A DNA stretch of 64,000 bases, taken from NCBI GenBank assembly GCA_035250975.1, contig DATFEP010000040.1:17828-81827 (forward strand). The letters run 5' to 3'. A program made the position numbers and the translations under genes. Below the pieces are notes generated by a model that saw only the letters and a list, made by a program, of their open reading frames with translations, was not told the DNA's origin and did not search any database. The stretch comes from Nitrososphaeraceae archaeon. Its GTDB lineage: Archaea; Thermoproteota; Nitrososphaeria; Nitrososphaerales; Nitrososphaeraceae. This document shows, piece by piece, positions 2,933-64,000 of the stretch. The stretch's first letter is position 1. Each line of letters starts with the position of its first letter.

Positions 2933-4273
2933 TTGATGACTAAGGTGATAACTGAGGAAATTTCCTCGCTTATTTCTGAATTTGGGGACGTCAGAAAATT
3001 AACTGATAACCTTTTCAAGTCCCTCAAGATAGAGGATGCCGTTATCCAATCCGACCCGTTTGGAAGCCCGCCAAATTGGCATATATCTCATGTAACATGG
3101 TTCTTTCATAAGATATTGACAAAATATGGAATTAAGGTATCTTTTGAAAATATAAATTTAGATTATCTAAATTCTTATTATCAAAAATTTGAAACGATTT
3201 TACCAAAAAATGAAAGAGGAAGATTTCCACGACCGACTGTATCAGAGAGTCTTCTCTATAGAAAGCAAATTGAAAAGAATGTCATTTCCTTTTTAGAAGC
3301 ACTAGGCAATGAAAAACACCTCTTGCCAAACATCCTGTATGATATACAATTAGGGAATCAACATGAAATGCAACATCAAGAATTGATGATTTATGATTTT
3401 CAAAACTATTTTGAGAGGTTTCCTGATCCACACGATAACTACAAACCTTTTAAAGTTAACAAGGACCCAGAAAAAACTATTTCAGAAGAACAGCGTAAAG
3501 AGATGATATCTATCCCAGGTGGAATATATCAACTTGGATATTCTGGAGAAGGTTTCTCTTATGATAATGAACTACCAGAGCACAATGTGTTTTTGTATCC
3601 CTTTAAAATAGATACTACACCTGTATCCAACGAAGATTTCATGAGATTTATTGACGATGGTGGATACCAAAAATACAGGTATTGGCTGTCTGATGGATGG
3701 GATCATGTTCAGGAATTTGATTGGCAATGTCCTCTTTACTGGTTTAAAAGGAATGGTGTATGGATGAAAAAAGATTTTTTTGGAGTAAATCCAGTAGATC
3801 CTGATGAGCCTGTAATAAATATCAGTTACTATGAAGCTGATGCTTACGCAAGATGGGCAGGAAAAAGATTGCCTACTGAAACAGAATGGGAAAAGGCATC
3901 TAGTTGGAATGAAGATCTAAATAGAAAAACAATTTATCCTTGGGGGGATGATTCTCCAAAGCCCGAAAACGCCAACCTGTTAGAATCTTTTCTTTGGAAA
4001 ACATCTAAATGTGGTTGTTATGAAAAGGGAAAGAGCTTCTACGGGTGTTATCAAATGATTGGCGATATTTGGGAATGGACAAGCTCTGAATACTCACTTT
4101 ATCCAGGATTTCAACCAAAATTTCCGGAGTACACCGATAAATGGGCTATAAACCAAAAAGTTTTGCGCGGCGGATGTTTTGCAACACCACGACGTCAAAT
4201 TCGAAACAGCTATAGAAACTACTTCAAACCCCACGAACGGATCCTCTTTGCAGGATTTCGTTGTGCAAAATAA
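2933..4273 (+). CDS. egtB: Ergothioneine biosynthesis sulfoxide synthase (DinB + FGE-sulfatase domains)
   Basis: WHISH and HEMQHQE iron ligands, RLPTETEWEKA, GDIWEWT, VLRGG, YRNYF; next to egtD. Confidence 0.92.
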   Translation: MMTKVITEEISSLISEFGDVRKLTDNLFKSLKIEDAVIQSDPFGSPPNWHISHVTWFFHKILTKYGIKVSFENINLDYLNSYYQKFETILPKNERGRFPRPTVSESLLYRKQIEKNVISFLEALGNEKHLLPNILYDIQLGNQHEMQHQELMIYDFQNYFERFPDPHDNYKPFKVNKDPEKTISEEQRKEMISIPGGIYQLGYSGEGFSYDNELPEHNVFLYPFKIDTTPVSNEDFMRFIDDGGYQKYRYWLSDGWDHVQEFDWQCPLYWFKRNGVWMKKDFFGVNPVDPDEPVINISYYEADAYARWAGKRLPTETEWEKASSWNEDLNRKTIYPWGDDSPKPENANLLESFLWKTSKCGCYEKGKSFYGCYQMIGDIWEWTSSEYSLYPGFQPKFPEYTDKWAINQKVLRGGCFATPRRQIRNSYRNYFKPHERILFAGFRCAK

Positions 4274-33488: not shown

Positions 33489-33950
33489 GTGATGATCATG
33501 ATTAGTTTATCTAATATTCATTTTTCTAATTGTAGCAGTAATGATAACAATAATACTAGCTTTGAAGAAAATAAGTATTTGGAGTTATCATCAAAAGACA
33601 CTGTGACTAAAAACATCACATTTGAAGAATTATGTCCAGTATGGTCTAAAAAAATATCTTTAGGGTTGGATAGAGTAGATAGATTCATGATTGAGCGAGA
33701 TTCAAAGTATTGCATTGTAGGTGAAGCGTGGAAATTTTCAGGAAGATATACTGGATATTATTTGGCACCTTTGATTCCGTTTGTTGGATGCTGGACTTGT
33801 ATAAATTACGCACGTAAATTTGCAAAGATTTCAAAGAATAAAAATATAAAAGAAGGTGTAACAAGAACCGATTTTGAACCTTTAATTGAATATTTTATAA
33901 ACCATTGGAATGAAAAACATACTAATAAAAATATAAAAAATAAAGAATAA
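33489..33950 (+). CDS. Hypothetical Cys/His-containing protein (CP..CIVGEAW..CWTC..HWNEKH), copy 1
   Basis: Near-identical paralog at 41940-42395. Confidence 0.8.
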   Translation: MMIMISLSNIHFSNCSSNDNNNTSFEENKYLELSSKDTVTKNITFEELCPVWSKKISLGLDRVDRFMIERDSKYCIVGEAWKFSGRYTGYYLAPLIPFVGCWTCINYARKFAKISKNKNIKEGVTRTDFEPLIEYFINHWNEKHTNKNIKNKE

Positions 33951-34440
33951 TACAAAGAAAATAAAAATAATGCTGTAGTAGGTTAATACATATCATAACT
34001 ACAATGATCATACCTAAAGAATGAATAAATGAATGTTTGAATGACCTTATTCTTATAGAAGCTTAGATACTATAATGGCAAAGTTCAAGAAATGATTATT
34101 TAAAATTTTTTTCTTAGAAATATTATAAAATATTTTTATGTTGATTCTTTGAGGATTACATTAATAGTTATACTCATTCACCCCAGCCCAATATTTTACT
34201 ACTAAAGTTAAAATGCCAAGAGAGAACATATAAGATAAATTTCAATGTACCATATTACAACAGATATTCATGAATAATAATTCCAATTCAATATTATGGA
34301 TCAATATTAGAATTTTTTGTATAAAAATTTACGGTAATAAATACGGATTATTTATGGTTAAATTTCTATAATATTATAAATTGATAACATTCTAAAAAAA
34401 AATTAAAAATATCAAAAAAAGTATTTATTATTTACAAACC

Positions 34441-34533
34441 ATGAAAAATAAGAATCTGCAAGACTTGTACAACGATGACGATGAAGCAATGGATAAAGTC
34501 TTAAATAATAAAAAAGTAGATCACCCGAAATAA
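34441..34533 (+). CDS. 30-aa microprotein MKNKNLQDLYNDDDEAMDKVLNNKKVDHPK
   Basis: Conserved in duplicate at 42955 with synonymous changes and an in-frame indel. Confidence 0.65.
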   Translation: MKNKNLQDLYNDDDEAMDKVLNNKKVDHPK

Positions 34534-41939: not shown

Positions 41940-42395
41940 ATGATGATAAGCGATAATTTATCTAATAATGTTTTTTCTCATGGTCGCAGTAATGATAACA
42001 ATAATGCTAACTTTGAAGAAAATAAGTATTTGGACTTATCATCAAAAGACACTGTGACTAAAAACATCGCATTTGAAGAATTATGTCCAGTATGGTCGAA
42101 AAAACTATCTTTAGGATTAGATAGAGTAGATAAATTCATGATTGACCGGGATTCAAAGTATTGCATTGTAGGTGAAGCGTGGAAATTTTCAGGAAGATAT
42201 ACTGGATATTATTTGGCACCTTTAATTCCGTTTGTTGGATGCTGGACTTGTATAAAGTACTCACGAAAATTTGCAAAGATTTCAAAGAATAAAAATATAA
42301 AAGAAGGTTTAACAAGAACCGATTTTGAACCTTTAATTGAATATTTTATAAACCACTGGAATGAAAAACATACAAATAAAAATATAAAAAAATAG
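41940..42395 (+). CDS. Hypothetical Cys/His-containing protein, copy 2
   Basis: Paralog of 33489-33950. Confidence 0.8.
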   Translation: MMISDNLSNNVFSHGRSNDNNNANFEENKYLDLSSKDTVTKNIAFEELCPVWSKKLSLGLDRVDKFMIDRDSKYCIVGEAWKFSGRYTGYYLAPLIPFVGCWTCIKYSRKFAKISKNKNIKEGLTRTDFEPLIEYFINHWNEKHTNKNIKK

Positions 42396-42954
42396 AAGAT
42401 AATACAAGATAAGAAAAAAAATATGATATATTGTGCTAATACACGTTATATCATATGTAACTATTATAGCCAAAGAATGAATAAATGAATGTTTGAATGA
42501 CCTTATTTTAAAGAATATTCAATTCCGGTAATGGGGAATGTACAAGAAAACATTCTTTTAATATTTTTTGTAACAAATATTCAGAACATTTTTTCACTTG
42601 ATCCATGGAGAATTGCGTTAATAGATAAACTTACCTCCTAGCCCAAGACGTTAGTACTAAAGTTAAAATGCATAGAGAGAATAGGAAATCGCTAAAAGGA
42701 GACTAGCATGAGAAAATTGTAAGCCCGTTGGGTGAAGGGCATTTTTGACCTTATCTTATGTATATCATATTATGGCAGATTTTCACGAATGATGGTTCCA
42801 AATCAAAATGATGAAAACAATATAACATTTTTCCTATGGAAATTTATGGTAACAAATATGGATTATTTCTAGCTAAGTTTCTAGAATGTTATAAAGTCAT
42901 AAGATTCTAAAAAAAATTAAAAATACTGAAAAAACTATTTATTATTTACATATC

Positions 42955-43050
42955 ATGAAAAATAACAATCTGGAAGAATTATACAATGATGACGATGAAG
43001 CAATAGATAAAGTGTTCTTAAGTAGAAAAAAAGTTGATCATCCAAAATAA
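42955..43050 (+). CDS. 31-aa microprotein MKNNNLEELYNDDDEAIDKVFLSRKKVDHPK
   Basis: Paralog of 34441-34533. Confidence 0.65.
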   Translation: MKNNNLEELYNDDDEAIDKVFLSRKKVDHPK

Positions 43051-49320: not shown

Positions 49321-49911
49321 GATATCGATAGATTTACCGTGAGTTTTGAGAATTTACTTGAATCATAGAGTCTTCTATACTGAAGGTTTAGACAGAATTA
49401 AATACACTACAATATTCTATTTTAATATATGATATTCTAAAATTTTGTCTATTATGATTAGTTATTGAGTTAATCATTTTCCAAATAGAACCCCATGTAG
49501 TAGGATTCTACGACCTTGTATTTACATTCATAAAAATAGTCTTTTTTACCACATCTTTGAATTTCATTAATAATTGACACAAAAAATAATTTGGTAATAA
49601 TAAAAATAAATTTTAGGCTATTTATTTGATTTTAGCTTTTGTTGATTGATAGAGACCATTTGTTTATAAAATGGTATTTTTTCTCTGAAGGATTTATATC
49701 AAAATTGTCCTTTTAATTGGATGAGTTAATACAATAAATTTCAATGGAATTAAATACGTTATACTCCCCGTAATAATTTAGCATTAAATATCTGGATTAA
49801 ATTATAATATTAATTCAATATATTACATGATTTGTATGTTGTACAAAGTAATTATCTCTATTCTCGAATGGAACAATAGATTGAAATTTATCTTACATTT
49901 TGGGATATAAA

Positions 49912-49935
49912 TATTTTTTCGGCGCCGAAAAAATA
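49912..49935. promoter_or_regulatory. Perfect 24-bp palindrome TATTTTTTCGGCGCCGAAAAAATA, probable operator
   Basis: Seen directly; TATAAAAA follows at 49946; second copy at 59246. Confidence 0.65.
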
Positions 49936-50231
49936 ATATTAAAAATATAAAAAAATATTTTCATACAATTATCAGCAGGATGGCTGGAATGGCTCAGATA
50001 TATGCCATCCTGTTGTCAGTTACCCATCTTTGGTGCAATGATATAGTTATTTGGTATTTGTATTATTTATGATATTTGATGGTAAAAAATGAAAAATATT
50101 TTTTGATCGTATTTCGTATTGATTGTCGATAATAATTCAGCCCCTATACGATCTATCTGTATATTGGTAGACGAGTTGCACTCTTTATTATGGATATATA
50201 TAATGCAATTTGTTTTTCAGCTAGTAAGAGC

Positions 50232-50336
50232 TTAACACCATCTACATGTCAGTCCAATGAAAGGCAGTGTTGCAATTAGAGATGTCCCTACAATCATTCC
50301 TATGATGCACATGTTGAATTTTGTTAACTTGAACAT
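50232..50336 (-). CDS. 34-aa hydrophobic peptide MFKLTKFNMCIIGMIVGTSLIATLPFIGLTCRWC
   Basis: High-identity block between the two copies runs exactly from ATG to stop. Confidence 0.8.
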   Translation of the reverse strand: MFKLTKFNMCIIGMIVGTSLIATLPFIGLTCRWC

Positions 50337-50854
50337 ACGACTTTATTCTCTTTAGAATAGAAAAAGATTTTCTACGTCTCAAATTGGAGTTCACAGTAAA
50401 GGAGAAACATAATTCTGAACATAACAGAATAAGGACCAATAAAGTTATAAGATACAATTTATCTTTAACTTTGAGGATTATATAAATATGTTCGCGTATA
50501 TTGTAAACTATAAATTTTCATTTAAAACATAAACTGAAAATATTATCGATAGGATTCACATTTGTTAGGTTTCATCTTTATATTCAGGTAGTAGGTTGGC
50601 AGTTGAATCGTCCATGTAGTAAGATTTACCTAAACTTGTATTTAGCTTTTATTATTAGTAACTTATTCTAAAATTATTCTCGGACTCAGAATATATAATT
50701 TTCTTCTAGTAGTATTGGTATGAATTATAAATTTGTTTACATATGAATTTGGCTTAATGTGATAATATTTTATAGTTTTATTATTGTTCTTTACATCAGA
50801 TAATAGCAATTTCTCCTTTTATGCAATCTATCAATTTCTATTTTCATTTTTCGC

Positions 50855-51625: not shown

Positions 51626-52120
51626 GTAAATGCCACATTGATTATATTTAATGAACTTTTCTCTGTCTGTCTCTCTTTCTCATATATAAATACCTTTTTT
51701 TGCTTTCTAGTATGGACCTATAGGTAAAGAAACTTCTTGTAATGGAGATTTTTTTATTCCTAGTATCATCGGTACAGAAGTCATGTAATTGAGTCCGGAG
51801 TATACCTAAACCGGTTCTAAAATAAGAATCTAATGTAAATATACTACTATCTTGTATTTGCATCTATTATTAGATACTTATTCTTTAAAATTATTCAATA
51901 TTAGATAGATATATTACGAATATGTAAATTATCATTTCTGTAATCAGACAAAAAAGGTAAAATTAGATAATTCGAACCTATATTAGATTAGATGGAAGAT
52001 AACGCGTGAATTACAATTTATGAACCCGAAAAAAGATAAAATAACCTAATTGTTATTTCTCTTTATTTTGCTAATATTATTTATCAAATATTTAAATAAA
52101 TTGATACAATCTAAAATATC

Positions 52121-52357: not shown

Positions 52358-52566
52358 AGACCTAAGTTCTTATAGTTTTGTATATATATTTGCTTTTTTG
52401 CAATTCATAGAATTGCTTGACTATAGCAGTATTACAGAATTAGAAAGCTTTGGTTTATAGAAATAAATACCTATAGGGGTGCGAAAATAAGAGTCTAATG
52501 TTATAGTACAAAGAGATACTTTTAAAATTTTCTTTAAATCTTAATAATGATTAAAGTTGAATTTTA

Positions 52567-53676
52567 CTAATTTAACAATTTTTTAACAGTACTTATCAAT
52601 AGCTTTCTATCAACGGGTTTTATCAATATTTGTTCCTTGGATAAACCTGGAACTATAGTTAATATTTCATCTGAAATACCTAAAACAGTTATAAAAAGAA
52701 TTTTAATTGTGGGATCGATTGATTTTATTTGCTGTTGTAATTGGAATCCATTCAAATCTTTCATTTTGATATCGAGGGTTACTAGTAGATCATTAAAATT
52801 TGGAAGATCTTTAATAAAATTCAATGCGTTGAAGGGATTGGTAAAAGAAGTTATTTCATAACCATTATCCTTTAAAAATGATTCATAAGTAAATAGTATA
52901 TCTGGATCATCATCGACTAAAATTATTCTTTTGTTATTGTTTCTTTGAGGAAAAAACAAATCTTTTTCACTTTCAGTTTCTATAAAGTTGTCAGTAGAGG
53001 AACCTGACATTTTCTTCCTGAGAAAGTATGTAGTACTACTATTATCAAGATACAATTCATTAATTTTTTTTATACTATATGTAGGGTATCCAATTGTTTC
53101 GGTTATCTTACATTCACCATTATTTATAAAATTATAATTGTTAACAATATTAGAAAACGATTTTAAAATTCTATAAAAATTATCCCCAATAATTATTTGA
53201 TTTGCAATAGATAGCGATGAATTTATCTTTGAACAGCGGTTTACAGTTGACCCGAATAAATCTATCTGGCTATAATCACCAACTAAAGCTAAATCTAAAA
53301 CACCAAAATCCATGCTAATTCTATAGCTGAATGGGGGAAGATGCTGCTTGGACAATTCCTGATTAACAGCATAGCGGGAATCTAAGATTTTCAAACCACA
53401 TTCAATAACTTCTCTAAAAGCTTCTTCGTTTTTATTATCAGATACCTTTGGAAAATATAATAATAAACAATCACCAATATTTTTAATAACTTTCCCTCCA
53501 TAATTTTTAACTATTTTCGATATTGAATTCATAAATTTCGAATAATAGATTCTAATATGTTCTAAATTGTCCATTGTAATGGTATTTTTAGTCGAATCTA
53601 CCAAATCAATAAAAACTACACAACTCTTTATTGAATCACCAGAAAATCTTATTTCTTTTGAAGAAAAATTTTTCAT
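52567..53676 (-). CDS. Class III adenylate/guanylate cyclase with C-terminal receiver domain
   Basis: FIDLVDST, KNIGDC, DLFGSTVN; REC: ILVDDD, LDIKM..LNG, FIT, KP. Confidence 0.88.
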   Translation of the reverse strand: MKNFSSKEIRFSGDSIKSCVVFIDLVDSTKNTITMDNLEHIRIYYSKFMNSISKIVKNYGGKVIKNIGDCLLLYFPKVSDNKNEEAFREVIECGLKILDSRYAVNQELSKQHLPPFSYRISMDFGVLDLALVGDYSQIDLFGSTVNRCSKINSSLSIANQIIIGDNFYRILKSFSNIVNNYNFINNGECKITETIGYPTYSIKKINELYLDNSSTTYFLRKKMSGSSTDNFIETESEKDLFFPQRNNNKRIILVDDDPDILFTYESFLKDNGYEITSFTNPFNALNFIKDLPNFNDLLVTLDIKMKDLNGFQLQQQIKSIDPTIKILFITVLGISDEILTIVPGLSKEQILIKPVDRKLLISTVKKLLN

Positions 53677-55077: not shown

Positions 55078-56084
55078 TGCTGTGTTGCACGACTCACTAC
55101 TGCTAACACATTTAGCTAACCTATTATAGTCATATTATGTGATGAACTGGAGAAATTGCAACGAATCTCTTGTCAAACGTGGGGAGGTATTACTTGATTT
55201 TGATGTTATAGATAACTGGGATAATGAACTAGAGGAGATGAATAATAAGAAAGGTAGAAAATTCGTATATCCATATTCATTTATCAAGTTATTGGGATAC
55301 ATGAGAGATACTTTCACTTACCCTACAGACAAACTGAAGGAGTAGTAAGAGAACATGCTTCAAACACACTAACATCTATTCCAGATTATAGTAACATTAG
55401 CAGAAGAATAAATAGACTGGATATCAAGATTTCTGATGATATAACCAAATCTAGTGTACATGATGATAATTTTGTAATAACAATTGATCCTACCGGTATA
55501 AAGGTATCTAACAGGGGCGAATGGATTAGACATAAATGGAATGTAAAAAGAGGATATCTAAAGATACATGTAGCAGTTGACATAAAAAAGAAGAGAATTC
55601 TATCATTAGATGTTACTAGTGAAGAAGTACATAATGTAAAAGCTCTTCCAAAATTGGTTGATTATATAGCAATAAAACAGAATAAGGTAATAGATACTGC
55701 CATCATGGATGGTTCCTATGATAGTAACAAGATCTTTCAGTTTCTATCATTTAAAGGCATACACCCAGCAATAAAGGTAAGAAAGAATTCTAGATGCAGA
55801 AAGTCCAATCATTACCTTAGAAACAAGACTGTAAAGATCCAGAAGAATGATTTGCAAGAATGGAAAGATAGCGTATGCTATGGACAAAGATGGATGGTAG
55901 AGACTGTTTTTTCATGTATCAAGAGAATTTTTGGAGAATATGTTACTGCTATCAGGTTAGAGAACATGATAAGAGAGATAATGTTGAAAGCATCGTTGTA
56001 TAACTGGTTTCAAAGTATAACTTACATAATTATCAATTATATAATAATGAGAAAGATTGTTTAAACGAGTTATGCAACAAACCA
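55078..56084 (+). mobile_element. IS5-family (IS903-group) element with frameshifted transposase
   Basis: Imperfect TIRs GCTGTGTTGCACGACTC / GAGTTATGCAACAAACC; MNWRNCNESLVKRG, then frameshift near 55308 into YFHLPYRQTEG..IDPTGIK..GEW..DGSYDS..YGQRWMVETVFS; no TSD seen. Confidence 0.88.
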
Positions 56085-59245: not shown

Positions 59246-59267
59246 ATTTTTTCGGCGCCGAAAAAAT
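59246..59267. promoter_or_regulatory. Perfect 22-bp palindrome ATTTTTTCGGCGCCGAAAAAAT, copy 2
   Basis: Seen directly; TATAAAAA begins at 59267. Confidence 0.65.
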
Positions 59268-59546
59268 ATAAAAATGGAATATTTATGGTATTATCAAATA
59301 AGATGGAAAGATATGGCTCAGATTCTACCCATCCTATTATCATTACATCATTTTTCTTTGTGTAATGATATAATTAATATGGTATTTGTGTTATTTATGA
59401 TATTTGGTAGTAAAATATTTTTATCATCTTCACTATGCATAATAATTATCTCAAGTAAAATCTATCGGGATATCGGTAGACCTATTCAGCTCTTGTTTAT
59501 TTGGGTATACATCGTATGAATTTGTCTCTTCTTAGTTAGTACGGTT

Positions 59547-59651
59547 CTAACACCATCTACATGTCAGTCCAATGAAAGGGAGTGTTGCAATTAGAGATGT
59601 CCCTACAATCATTCCTATGACGCACATGTTGAATTTTGTTAACTTAAACAT
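59547..59651 (-). CDS. 34-aa hydrophobic peptide MFKLTKFNMCVIGMIVGTSLIATLPFIGLTCRWC
   Basis: Differs from copy 1 only by TTC/TTT, CTG/CTC, I/V and TAA/TAG. Confidence 0.8.
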   Translation of the reverse strand: MFKLTKFNMCVIGMIVGTSLIATLPFIGLTCRWC

Positions 59652-60165
59652 ACTTCTTTGTTCATTTTAGAATACAAAAAGATTTTCCACGTCTGAAAAC
59701 AGAGATGGCTGTAAAGAAGAAACATAATTCTGAACTTACAAAAAAGAAGACCAATAGAGTTATAAGGTACTATTTTTTGTAACTTAAGAGTAGGGTTCAT
59801 CTGTATATTCAGCATGTTTCTCTGAAGTAAAATCTTCTACATAATACGGTTCTATTATATTTTATTAACAATATTGTTTGTATGGATATTCACTTCGTCG
59901 AGAGTAATACCGTTAGCGGTTCTAAAATAAGAGTCTAATGTGTATAGTAATGAAAGTGATGCTTAGGATTTTCATTTTTGTAATTGCTTTTTAAATATTT
60001 ATTATTACAAATTAATTGTTATTCTAAATAAATTTAATAACATCTAAAATTTAAAAGATTTTACTATTATTTATTAAGATGCTTACTAAAATTATTAATG
60101 TGATAAAACAATATGATGTTGAATTAAATGTACTATAAAAAATACGAGAAAACTTAAATAAAATA

Positions 60166-60936: not shown

Positions 60937-61162
60937 ATTGCAAATAATCTAATAATATTTTTCTTTTGATTAATATTAATAGCTACTAATTTTTATAATT
61001 TCATTATTTTATATTTAGAGCTATACAAATCTATATTATAAAATATTAAACCTATTTTAAAATAGTTTTAAGGTAAATCAATTTGAACGAAATTTGCGAA
61101 GGAGGGGGTAATACCGATAGCGGTGCGAAAATAAGAGTCTAATGTAGATACCACTATCTTGT

Positions 61163-61735
61163 GGATATTCTCTTGGTGCGACAGTAGCTCAACAGCTTAC
61201 AGTTAGTCATCCAGATAAGGTTAACAGACTCATACTTGTTGGTGCGTCATGTGGTGGGATAGAGGGTATACCTCCAAGTCCTCAACTTGTAGAATTTATG
61301 TCTGGTATAGTAAACAAATCCCTAAATAATATTCCCGTTACTGAGGAAGAGATAAAAGAGATCATGTCTTCCTCATTAGGTTCAGCATGGGTGAAATTGT
61401 ATCCCAATTCCCTTGAAAACATTCCAACAGCAGAAGATGTGTTTTCTGTTATCTCTCCTAATACTATGAAGCAACAATTTAGAATAGGAGAAGGTTGGAT
61501 GGCAACTAACTGCGATGGTATTTGTGATGAGCTTACAAAAAAAACTCTCCTACTTTGATCATAACTGGAACCATGATAATAATGTACCATCAGGAAATTC
61601 TTTAATTATTGCGGAAAAATTCCTGGAGCTTGGCTTGTACAGATTAAAGATGGTTGCCATGCATTATTCGCATAATATCCATCTATAGTCAATAGAGTAT
61701 TAGAAACATTTCTTGACTACAGCAAGTCCTAGTTG
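61163..61735 (+). pseudogene. 5'-truncated, frameshifted alpha/beta hydrolase
   Basis: GYSLG nucleophile elbow at 61163, HPDKVNRLILVG, later IAEKIPGAWLVQIKDGCH..*YP. Confidence 0.75.
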
Positions 61736-63540: not shown

Positions 63541-64000
63541 AAACTAAATATGAAAATCAAAATAAAATTATATATATAAAAATAAAGTAAATTTTAAATA
63601 CTAAATTAAAAAGAGGATTTGACTATTATATTTTATCAACAATATTGTTTGTATTTATATTCACTTCGTCGGGAGCAATACCGATAGCGGTTCTAAAATA
63701 AGAGTCTACTATAGAGATACTACTACCTTGTATTTAGCTTTTATTATCAGTAACTTATTTTTGTTAAGTTCCTTTTTTATTCGAAAAGATAATGAATGAT
63801 GAAAAATTACATGTTTTATTAGAAAGGAAACAAGAAGAATAATAACTTTTCTTAGTTAAAGTCTAATATAAAGGACGGTAAGAATTATAATAGAAATTTA
63901 CATCTTTAGTTTAGCATATAATAAACTAATTATTTTAGATATTTATAATAGAATTAAGAATAACGATAATAATGTTTACAACAAGAGCATTGTCATCATC

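Follow-up and report, generated by a model that had tools for sequence, protein, structure and literature searches.

A short accessory peptide cassette with a putative ParB-binding palindrome at its 3' edge in soil Nitrososphaeraceae

Proteins of the ParB family bind palindromic sites in DNA, as in the ParB-parS, Noc-NBS and KorB-OB systems, and in its available text a 2016 review describes the ParABS system for bacteria and plasmids only (PMC5120986). Literature searches returned nothing on ParB/parS in the Nitrososphaeria (Thaumarchaeota), or on parS-like sites or small RNAs in the archaeal family Nitrososphaeraceae. Here we report on a short multicopy cassette in a genome of this family (assembly GCA_035250975.1; 2.49 Mb, 30.6% G+C). 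Three copies were found, two of which (A and B) lie in the stretch of 64,000 nucleotides that was analysed as a whole (contig DATFEP010000040.1, positions 17,828 to 81,827), hereafter the window, while the third (C) is located on contig C26. The cassette, which measures ~0.55-0.9 kb in soil Nitrososphaeraceae, has one clear gene, encoding a 34-residue peptide, and carries at its 3' edge a perfect palindrome that we regard as the putative binding site of a ParB-family protein, ParB-1.

As in the systems named above, ParB-1 carries ParB_N and HTH_ParB domains and is encoded beside ParA, with Noc and Spo0J as its closest solved relatives, and the site is a perfect palindrome of 16-24 nt that occurs several to tens of times per genome, once right after parB, in a lineage-specific sequence. 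ParB-like genes appear in the available text of a study on thaumarchaeal conjugative elements (PMC6563490), where the partner of ParB is a TFIIB homologue encoded next to it, whereas here it is ParA. The present case differs from ParB-parS, Noc-NBS and KorB-OB in its archaeal host, in a site sequence that is unrelated to bacterial parS, and in the scattering of the sites, a fifth to a third of which are attached to a small-peptide cassette; the site is here predicted from sequence.

Type I toxin-antitoxin (TA) systems with a convergent antisense RNA are known from txpA/RatA and fst/RNAII. The cassette resembles them in its small, single-span hydrophobic peptide and in being a short, intergenic and accessory unit of several copies; conserved non-coding DNA 3' of the gene and a long conserved stretch upstream are further common features. 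It differs in that its peptide is unusually conserved, has invariant cysteines and matches no known toxin family, the likeness being one of sequence architecture only. The available text of a recent preprint compares archaeal small-protein/antisense pairs with hok/sok only and names no archaeal type I TA (bioRxiv 10.1101/2025.10.28.685009), and no paper on an archaeal type I TA was found in our literature search.

The palindrome and its link to ParB-1

The main features of the two window copies are the following.

49914..49933: palindrome of copy A, TTTTTTCGGCGCCGAAAAAA (a perfect 24-nt palindrome, 49912-35, if the flanking TA/TA is counted); putative ParB-1 site at the 3' edge of the cassette
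59247..59266: palindrome of copy B, the same 20-mer
50232..50336, minus strand: peptide gene of copy A, 34 aa, MFKLTKFNMCIIGMIVGTSLIATLPFIGLTCRWC
59547..59651, minus strand: peptide gene of copy B, 97% identical to copy A
50337..50460, minus strand: conserved region upstream of the peptide gene, with promoter and/or leader elements
49663..50565: indel segment of ~900 bp (palindrome, cassette and flanks), absent at the orthologous locus of relative G019

The original prediction had treated the palindrome as an operator. A role private to the cassette was not borne out: the sequence is a genus-wide motif and its defining association is with a ParB-family gene. In the host genome, 13-14 of the 15 octamers CGGCGCCG lie inside T4-6CGGCGCCGA4-6. 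Sites of the T5-6CGGCGCCGA5-6 type number 15-16 (15 on 9 contigs with a looser pattern), and only three of them belong to cassettes. The genus comparison comprised 25 genomes, the host genome and 24 others, and each of the 25 holds 2-32 sites when up to one mismatch is allowed, while a reversed pattern used as control gave 0 sites in 25/25. Since the octamers are concentrated in the palindrome in a genome of such low G+C content and the reversed control gave none, the palindrome occurs far beyond chance. Several sites occupy orthologous positions in two relatives (G016 and G012). Among three genomes of other genera that were scanned, two had no site and the third had one, with one mismatch.

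Variants in a single arm that are not compensated in the other were also found (TTTTAGGCGCC.., TTTGCGGCGCC.. and ..GGCGTCG..). Because palindromy is perfect at the centre, single-arm variants stand uncompensated, ~15 copies are present and the sequence co-varies with lineage, a protein very probably binds the palindrome, and it would be a dimeric DNA-binding protein.

ParB-1 is the obvious candidate for this binder. At position 61448 of contig C87 in the host genome, a site lies ~100 nt after the stop codon of the ParB-1 gene, which itself follows a ParA gene. ParB_N (E 1.9e-23) and HTH_ParB (E 1.2e-18) domains were identified in the protein, and its best solved relatives in a PDB search were Noc (2.5e-28) and Spo0J (1e-27). 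ParB-1 is present in 21/25 genomes of the genus (E<=1e-60). Among the ten genus genomes in which both positions could be read, a site follows the parB stop codon at 17-125 nt in eight (G000, which is the host genome, G012, G016, G017, G003, G009, G020 and G002); as to the other two, gene and sites lie on different short contigs in G018, and no palindrome was found within 400 nt in G015. Outside the genus, a palindrome of the same build and with another core lies within 4-35 nt of the stop codon at 5/16 loci of ParB-1 orthologues (ATTTTTCGACGTCGAAAAAT in G069 and G029, cut by the contig end in G029; TTTTGCCGCGCGGCAAAA in G088; TTTCGGTACCGAAA in G027; TTTTCGATGTCGAAAA in G025). The core of the palindrome co-varies between genera, reading CGACGTCG in g6, GCCGCGCGGC in G088, CGGTACCG in G027 and CGATGTCG in G025. 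The g6 variant has 4 and 6 sites in two g6 genomes and 0 in the host genome, and the G088 variant is single-copy. A second ParB-like paralogue (~37% identity), which occurs once in most genomes of the family, has no link to the motif. The palindrome is thus most likely a parS/NBS/OB-like site of ParB-1, and the ParA-ParB operon (C87:61552-63352; locus L086:2605-4405), which is of the bacterial Spo0J/Noc type, is a candidate for an archaeal ParABS system, the centromere-like site being predicted.

The account that we favour, at slightly better than even confidence, is that of an accessory small-membrane-peptide cassette with a ParB-1 site at its 3' edge, which would be coupled to the partition system through binding of ParB-1. 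We infer from the sequence that ParB-1 dimers would bind the palindrome in the manner of ParB-parS, Noc-NBS and KorB-OB, and that binding may affect transcription: the protein would either occlude the abutting A/T-rich promoter-like element or load at the site and slide onto the cassette, and expression or inheritance of the cassette would be tied to the ParAB system. What separates palindrome and stop codon (165-300 nt) would be non-coding regulatory DNA or RNA, comprising hairpin 1, a conserved block and oligo-T in both directions, with no second protein. According to the available text on KorB, a member of the ParB family, this protein represses promoters from OB sites that lie 4-10 bp, or 45 to >1,000 bp, upstream (PMC11790492).

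Several observations weigh against this account. Within the genus, G015 has a ParB-1 that is 69% identical, a palindrome-free vicinity of the gene and 2 sites genome-wide, and at 11/16 loci of ParB-1 orthologues outside the genus no such palindrome lies within 400 nt downstream. The sites are spread over at least nine contigs in the host genome, at least five in G016, and at least 0.9 Mb of one G016 contig, with no visible clustering like that of bacterial parS. Other sites of the host genome were found 24 nt after the stop codon of a thioredoxin gene, 59-135 nt upstream of genes, or in gene-poor DNA, and no single positional rule ('always at a promoter') emerges among them. A perfect palindrome with T- and A-runs could moreover act as an RNA hairpin or terminator, and the position beside parB might stem from autoregulation through another factor.

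Two sets of paralogues were seen in the surroundings of palindromes. Radical SAM/SPASM paralogues are encoded at C44:11621-12688 and C85:655-1749 of the host genome (loci L079 and L082), with a palindrome 200-430 nt past each 3' end and, ~40-55 nt beyond each palindrome, the end of a conserved small acidic open reading frame (ORF; ..EDLYNDDDEA.EKVFLH..). Each of these loci may be a peptide-modification locus. Paralogues combining an adenylate/guanylate cyclase with a receiver domain occur in the window (52567-53676, minus strand) and on contig C31 (L077:3295-4413), each 0.8-2.2 kb from a palindrome.

The peptide gene and its accessory unit

The peptide ORF is a real, conserved coding gene, because the 43 gene copies show both a codon-position signature (variability 0.23, 0.12 and 0.40 at the three positions) and an excess of synonymous change in frame (synonymous/non-synonymous codon differences 6680/9544, vs 1847/14395 and 1005/15146 in the other frames). 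The peptide has a basic N-terminus and a single hydrophobic span, and ends in CRWC. Thirteen positions are invariant among 18 diverse members, including C10, C31, C34, G13, M14, G17, P25, F26, G28 and L29, and identity across genera is 65-100%, with the pattern GM..G...PF.GL. Besides the host genome, 16/24 genomes of the genus gave strong matches (E < 1e-9), as did four more genera of the same family, at 1-5 copies per carrying genome. No match at strong E-values was found in 8/24 other genus genomes, and with the peptide as query the gene was not found in 24 genomes from other families of the order. When 1.84 billion representative proteins were searched with a profile, only 32 were recovered at E <= 1e-3; the 24 of these that were examined keep the same core, and the longer ones carry unrelated extensions. 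Zero matches were obtained in Pfam (E up to 10), NCBIfam (10) and PADLOC (0.01), thus none to a described type I toxin family, and a PDB sequence search gave no meaningful match. The product is predicted to be a single-span membrane peptide.

Within the genus, 30/32 cassettes carry the palindrome (up to two mismatches). It is located ~300 nt past the peptide stop codon in 15 'long-spacer' cassettes, among them all three of the host genome, and ~165 nt past it in 15 'short-spacer' cassettes, some of which have a second palindrome ~280-290 nt upstream of the start codon. In the four other genera, the palindrome was present beside 0/11 cassettes and no other recurring palindrome was seen beside them either; ParB-1 was not found in these genera with the query used. 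In G019, the closest relative, the orthologous locus has the flanks of copy A ~17 nt apart and lacks ~900 bp with palindrome and cassette. As this indel holds both, palindrome and cassette move together as an accessory unit, whose presence varies between close relatives: G016 has a cassette at the same locus as copy A. An imperfect 18-nt direct repeat (GATAGAGACCATTTGTT / GATAGGATTCACATTTGTT) is found at both ends of the indel.

Copies A and B can be aligned from the palindrome to ~125 nt upstream of the peptide start codon (84% mean column identity), and homology between the copies of the host genome has its boundary exactly at the palindrome. The setting is repeat-rich, gene-poor DNA near a transposase fragment: coding density is low at 40-64 kb of the window, with the DDE transposase fragment at 55654-56064. 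Small non-autonomous repeated elements with short repeats at their borders are alike in their length of ~0.55-0.9 kb, in having no recombinase of their own, in copy number (1-5), in presence/absence and in the imperfect direct repeat that flanks the indel. The cassette differs from them in its conserved, selected gene, in its putative protein-binding palindrome and in the exact end of inter-copy homology at this palindrome; no terminal inverted repeats were seen.

Upstream of the peptide, a 24-mer at 50352-75 of copy A (minus strand GTAGAAAATCTTTTTCTATTCTAA, also given as GTGGAAAATCTTTTTCTATTCTAA) is nearly invariant in the genus and stands ~15-40 nt before the ATG, and TATA-like elements lie ~115 and ~185 nt upstream of the start codon. 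When the host genome was searched with a profile of this leader, only the three cassettes and one weak match (E 0.011) were obtained. The weak match (C54:36251-36315; locus L081, ~2960-3100) lies 460 nt from another palindrome. The 32-aa Cys-rich ORF behind it does not resemble the CRWC peptide, and this may be a cassette that has decayed or diverged.

Several repeats accompany the cassettes. At the right edge of the indel, a ~110-nt repeat (50566-50678) occurs in dozens of copies per relative genome (43 matches in G005, 33 in G016), and in a rhizosphere metagenome its summed contig depth was ~3000 vs ~27 in the flanks; it may be an element of the MITE (miniature inverted-repeat transposable element) kind. 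The ~35-58-nt motif ATACCGATAGCGGTTCTAAAATAAGAGTCTAATGT (families D3/D4) has five copies (51802-51859, 52467-52524, 59907-59964, 61111-61168 and 63678-63735), one of them 130 nt beyond cassette B. A ~1-kb duplication (33490-34515 vs 41941-43029; families D1, D5, D9 and D10) shows 84-93% identity in several blocks.

Between the palindrome and the peptide gene

All features named in the original prediction were found in copies A and B when the sequence was read directly. Those of the intervening DNA are listed here together with the conserved block and the mid-cassette element.

49946..49955, plus strand: A/T-rich TATAAAAAAA, either TATA box of a plus-strand promoter or, on the minus strand, a T7 run ending transcription
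49946 (start, copy A) and 59267-74 (copy B): TATA-like string TATAAAAA
49973..50015: hairpin 1 of copy A, arms CAGCAGGATGGC (49973-84) and GCCATCCTGTTG (50004-15), 12 pairs including one G.U on the plus strand; conserved loop TGGCTCAGAT
59297..59338: hairpin 1 of copy B, arms AATAAGATGG (59297-306) and CCATCCTATT (59329-38), with one A.C mismatch on the plus strand that is U.G on the minus strand
49989..50072 (copy A, 27 aa) and 59313..59519 (copy B, 68 aa), plus strand: MAQI ORFs
50049..50081: conserved non-coding block ..GGTATTTGTATTATTTATGATATTTGG.., seen as repeat family D12 and in the alignment of the 15 long-spacer cassettes
50084..50104: mid-cassette element A6..A5..T6, with oligo-T on either strand
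50152..50171 (copy A, arms 50152-57 and 50166-71) and 59461-80 (copy B), plus strand: hairpin 2, TCTATC..GGTAGA, 6 bp

The original prediction saw in this arrangement a type I TA-like unit, in which a promoter to the right of the palindrome, the latter serving as operator, would drive a structured plus-strand RNA that pairs with the 3' part of the mRNA of a toxic peptide. Part of this stood: order, side and distance of palindrome and peptide gene are conserved over many species, as is the succession of palindrome, A/T-rich element, 27-30 nt and AGGATG/hairpin start, and the peptide is small, hydrophobic, multicopy and accessory. The notion of a private operator did not hold. The cassettes of the four other genera, which have neither the palindrome nor an alignable plus-strand unit, also speak against the type I TA reading. 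No RNA sequencing run was listed as containing this DNA, and one metatranscriptome examined together with three DNA runs gave no RNA contig on it, a result that bears neither for nor against expression. In DNA of 70% A+T the TATA-like string is indistinguishable from background, and an nhmmer search of the host genome for the plus-strand unit outside cassettes gave nothing beyond the three.

Hairpin 1, the most prominent part of the postulated RNA, folds in 14/15 long-spacer cassettes and is conserved in that subgroup only. Its pairs were counted on a supplied structure, after RNAalifold on a MAFFT alignment with misaligned arms had given no pairs. Over nine alignable pairs, 87.2% of cells are paired vs 83.4 +/- 1.5 in shuffles (reached by 5/500). 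The compensatory change from C-G to T-A between copies A and B is real, and two pairs show compensatory change in all, C-G to U-A (one clade, 4 sequences) and G-C to A-U (one sequence). Covariation, which had been suggested as a check of the RNA, is nevertheless weak, since the score is reached by 69/500 shuffles and one of the two pairs is confined to the single 4-sequence clade. The G.U pair of A-type hairpins works on the plus strand only, as expected for a plus-strand RNA, whereas the A.C of B-type hairpins becomes U.G on the minus strand, on which these fold better (-12.9 vs -8.7 kcal/mol). As the wobble pairs favour opposite strands in A- and B-type copies, they do not fix the strand of hairpin 1. 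In copy C the pair that is mismatched in copy B is restored and the ATG of the loop is deleted, indicating that structure is favoured over coding. Hairpin 2 is short, weak and kept among the closest copies only; its one G.U pair, read in copy A, works on the plus strand as had been proposed.

The block at 50049-81 is the most conserved non-coding part of the cassette; it is kept regardless of the frame or end of the MAQI ORF and is promoter-like on either strand. Most long-spacer cassettes keep, in the mid-cassette element next to it, the succession of A-run and T-run. As oligo-T is a termination signal for archaeal RNA polymerase, this element is a probable two-way terminator at which convergent transcripts would meet. 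In long-spacer cassettes, those of the window included, it would end both transcripts, and the oligo-T layout leaves a convergent overlap of at most ~20 nt, whereas the T5 runs of short-spacer cassettes (minus beyond plus) make an overlap of ~50 nt possible. A search for duplexes between the intervening region, on both strands, and the peptide leader gave long, loop-ridden duplexes and no conserved trans-pairing site. The peptide is, in addition, far more conserved than would be expected of a type I toxin, and the searches of Pfam, NCBIfam and PADLOC offered no toxin family for it. Built on architecture and weakened by the long-spacer oligo-T layout and by peptide conservation, the type I TA reading is a possible one that we consider unlikely.

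At gathering score, Rfam reported only tRNAs in the window, and three sub-threshold matches of snoRNA type in 49850-50500 (E 0.4-0.9) are at chance level. The idea of a C/D-box small RNA, to which these matches had given rise, was rejected, as neither strand has a C box (RUGAUGA).

Other accounts and what the cassette may mean

The peptide might also be an ordinary small subunit, or a metal- or redox-handling membrane protein, that has been duplicated, in which case the palindrome would be the site of a transcription factor other than ParB. High conservation, the invariant C..C..C with Cys at both membrane faces and the GM..G...PF.GL pattern fit such a protein, as does the neighbourhood of other palindromes: the genes flanking the 12 non-cassette sites of the host genome, which were scanned with Pfam, include redox and copper genes (thioredoxin, plastocyanin-like, two radical SAM/SPASM and galactose-oxidase-like). 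An ordinary protein of this kind is harder to reconcile with absence of the gene from 8/24 genus genomes (strong E-values) and 24/24 genomes of other families, with its presence/absence between close relatives and with the repeat-rich, gene-poor setting by a transposase fragment. It also leaves the parB adjacency and the cross-genus co-variation unexplained, and we hold this account to be improbable.

According to another account, which appears distinctly unlikely, the 165-300 nt would be the 3' untranslated region of the peptide mRNA, or a minus-strand small RNA would arise from the conserved block, with palindrome and T-runs as the terminator and TATAAAAAAA as a T7 run. The minus-strand end of the cassette indeed has several T5-T7 runs followed by the T6 of the palindrome, and from hairpin 1 to the conserved block an A5 (T5 on the minus strand) occurs in 0/15 long-spacer cassettes and a plus-strand T5 in 4/15. 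The minus-strand fold of 49945-50045 has z = -2.8, and a number of other sites are found shortly after the 3' end of a gene (thioredoxin, parB, radical SAM). However, a general terminator would exceed ~15 sites per genome, some sites lie upstream of genes, and the minus-strand oligo-T in mid-cassette should stop the peptide mRNA before hairpin 1. Palindromy that is perfect at the centre and single-arm variants without compensation are more in keeping with a DNA-binding protein that acts as a dimer than with an RNA stem.

A bolder idea, for which we see only a slim chance, is that of a self-contained archaeal 'stability module', with a ParB-loading centromere-like site fused to a type I-like membrane toxin gene that would be held down by ParB-1 and/or a convergent small RNA. 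If true, it would be without precedent on two counts, as a type I-like toxin system in an archaeon and as a ParB site carried along by a toxin cassette.

We regard as highly improbable the alternative put forward in the original prediction, namely a further small hydrophobic peptide (MAQI.ILLS...) encoded on the plus strand as partner of, or immunity to, the CRWC peptide: its frame does run to the same stop (..YL*) in 8/15 long-spacer cassettes, across a 3-nt indel and with some synonymous changes, but the start codon is ATG in 10/15, CTG in 3, ATA in 1 and deleted in 1 (copy C, by an 8-nt deletion), the product varies from 14 to 81 aa through frameshifts, short-spacer cassettes lack a start codon at this place, the conserved 'ILL' codons form the 3' arm of hairpin 1 and co-vary with its non-coding 5' arm, the best-conserved block extends across the stop codon and beyond, and Pfam and NCBIfam gave no family matches. 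For the question raised by the original prediction, the plus-strand ORF can be dropped, and what matters is the strand and the ends of the transcripts between palindrome and peptide gene.

Chromosome segregation and organisation are largely unknown in the Nitrososphaeria (Thaumarchaeota). The preferred reading, an accessory cassette that carries a ParB-1 site, offers a concrete candidate recognition sequence for ParB, with lineage-specific variants, which is directly testable. The location of a fifth to a third of the sites on an accessory peptide cassette points to a link of partition or silencing proteins with small selfish or accessory genes.

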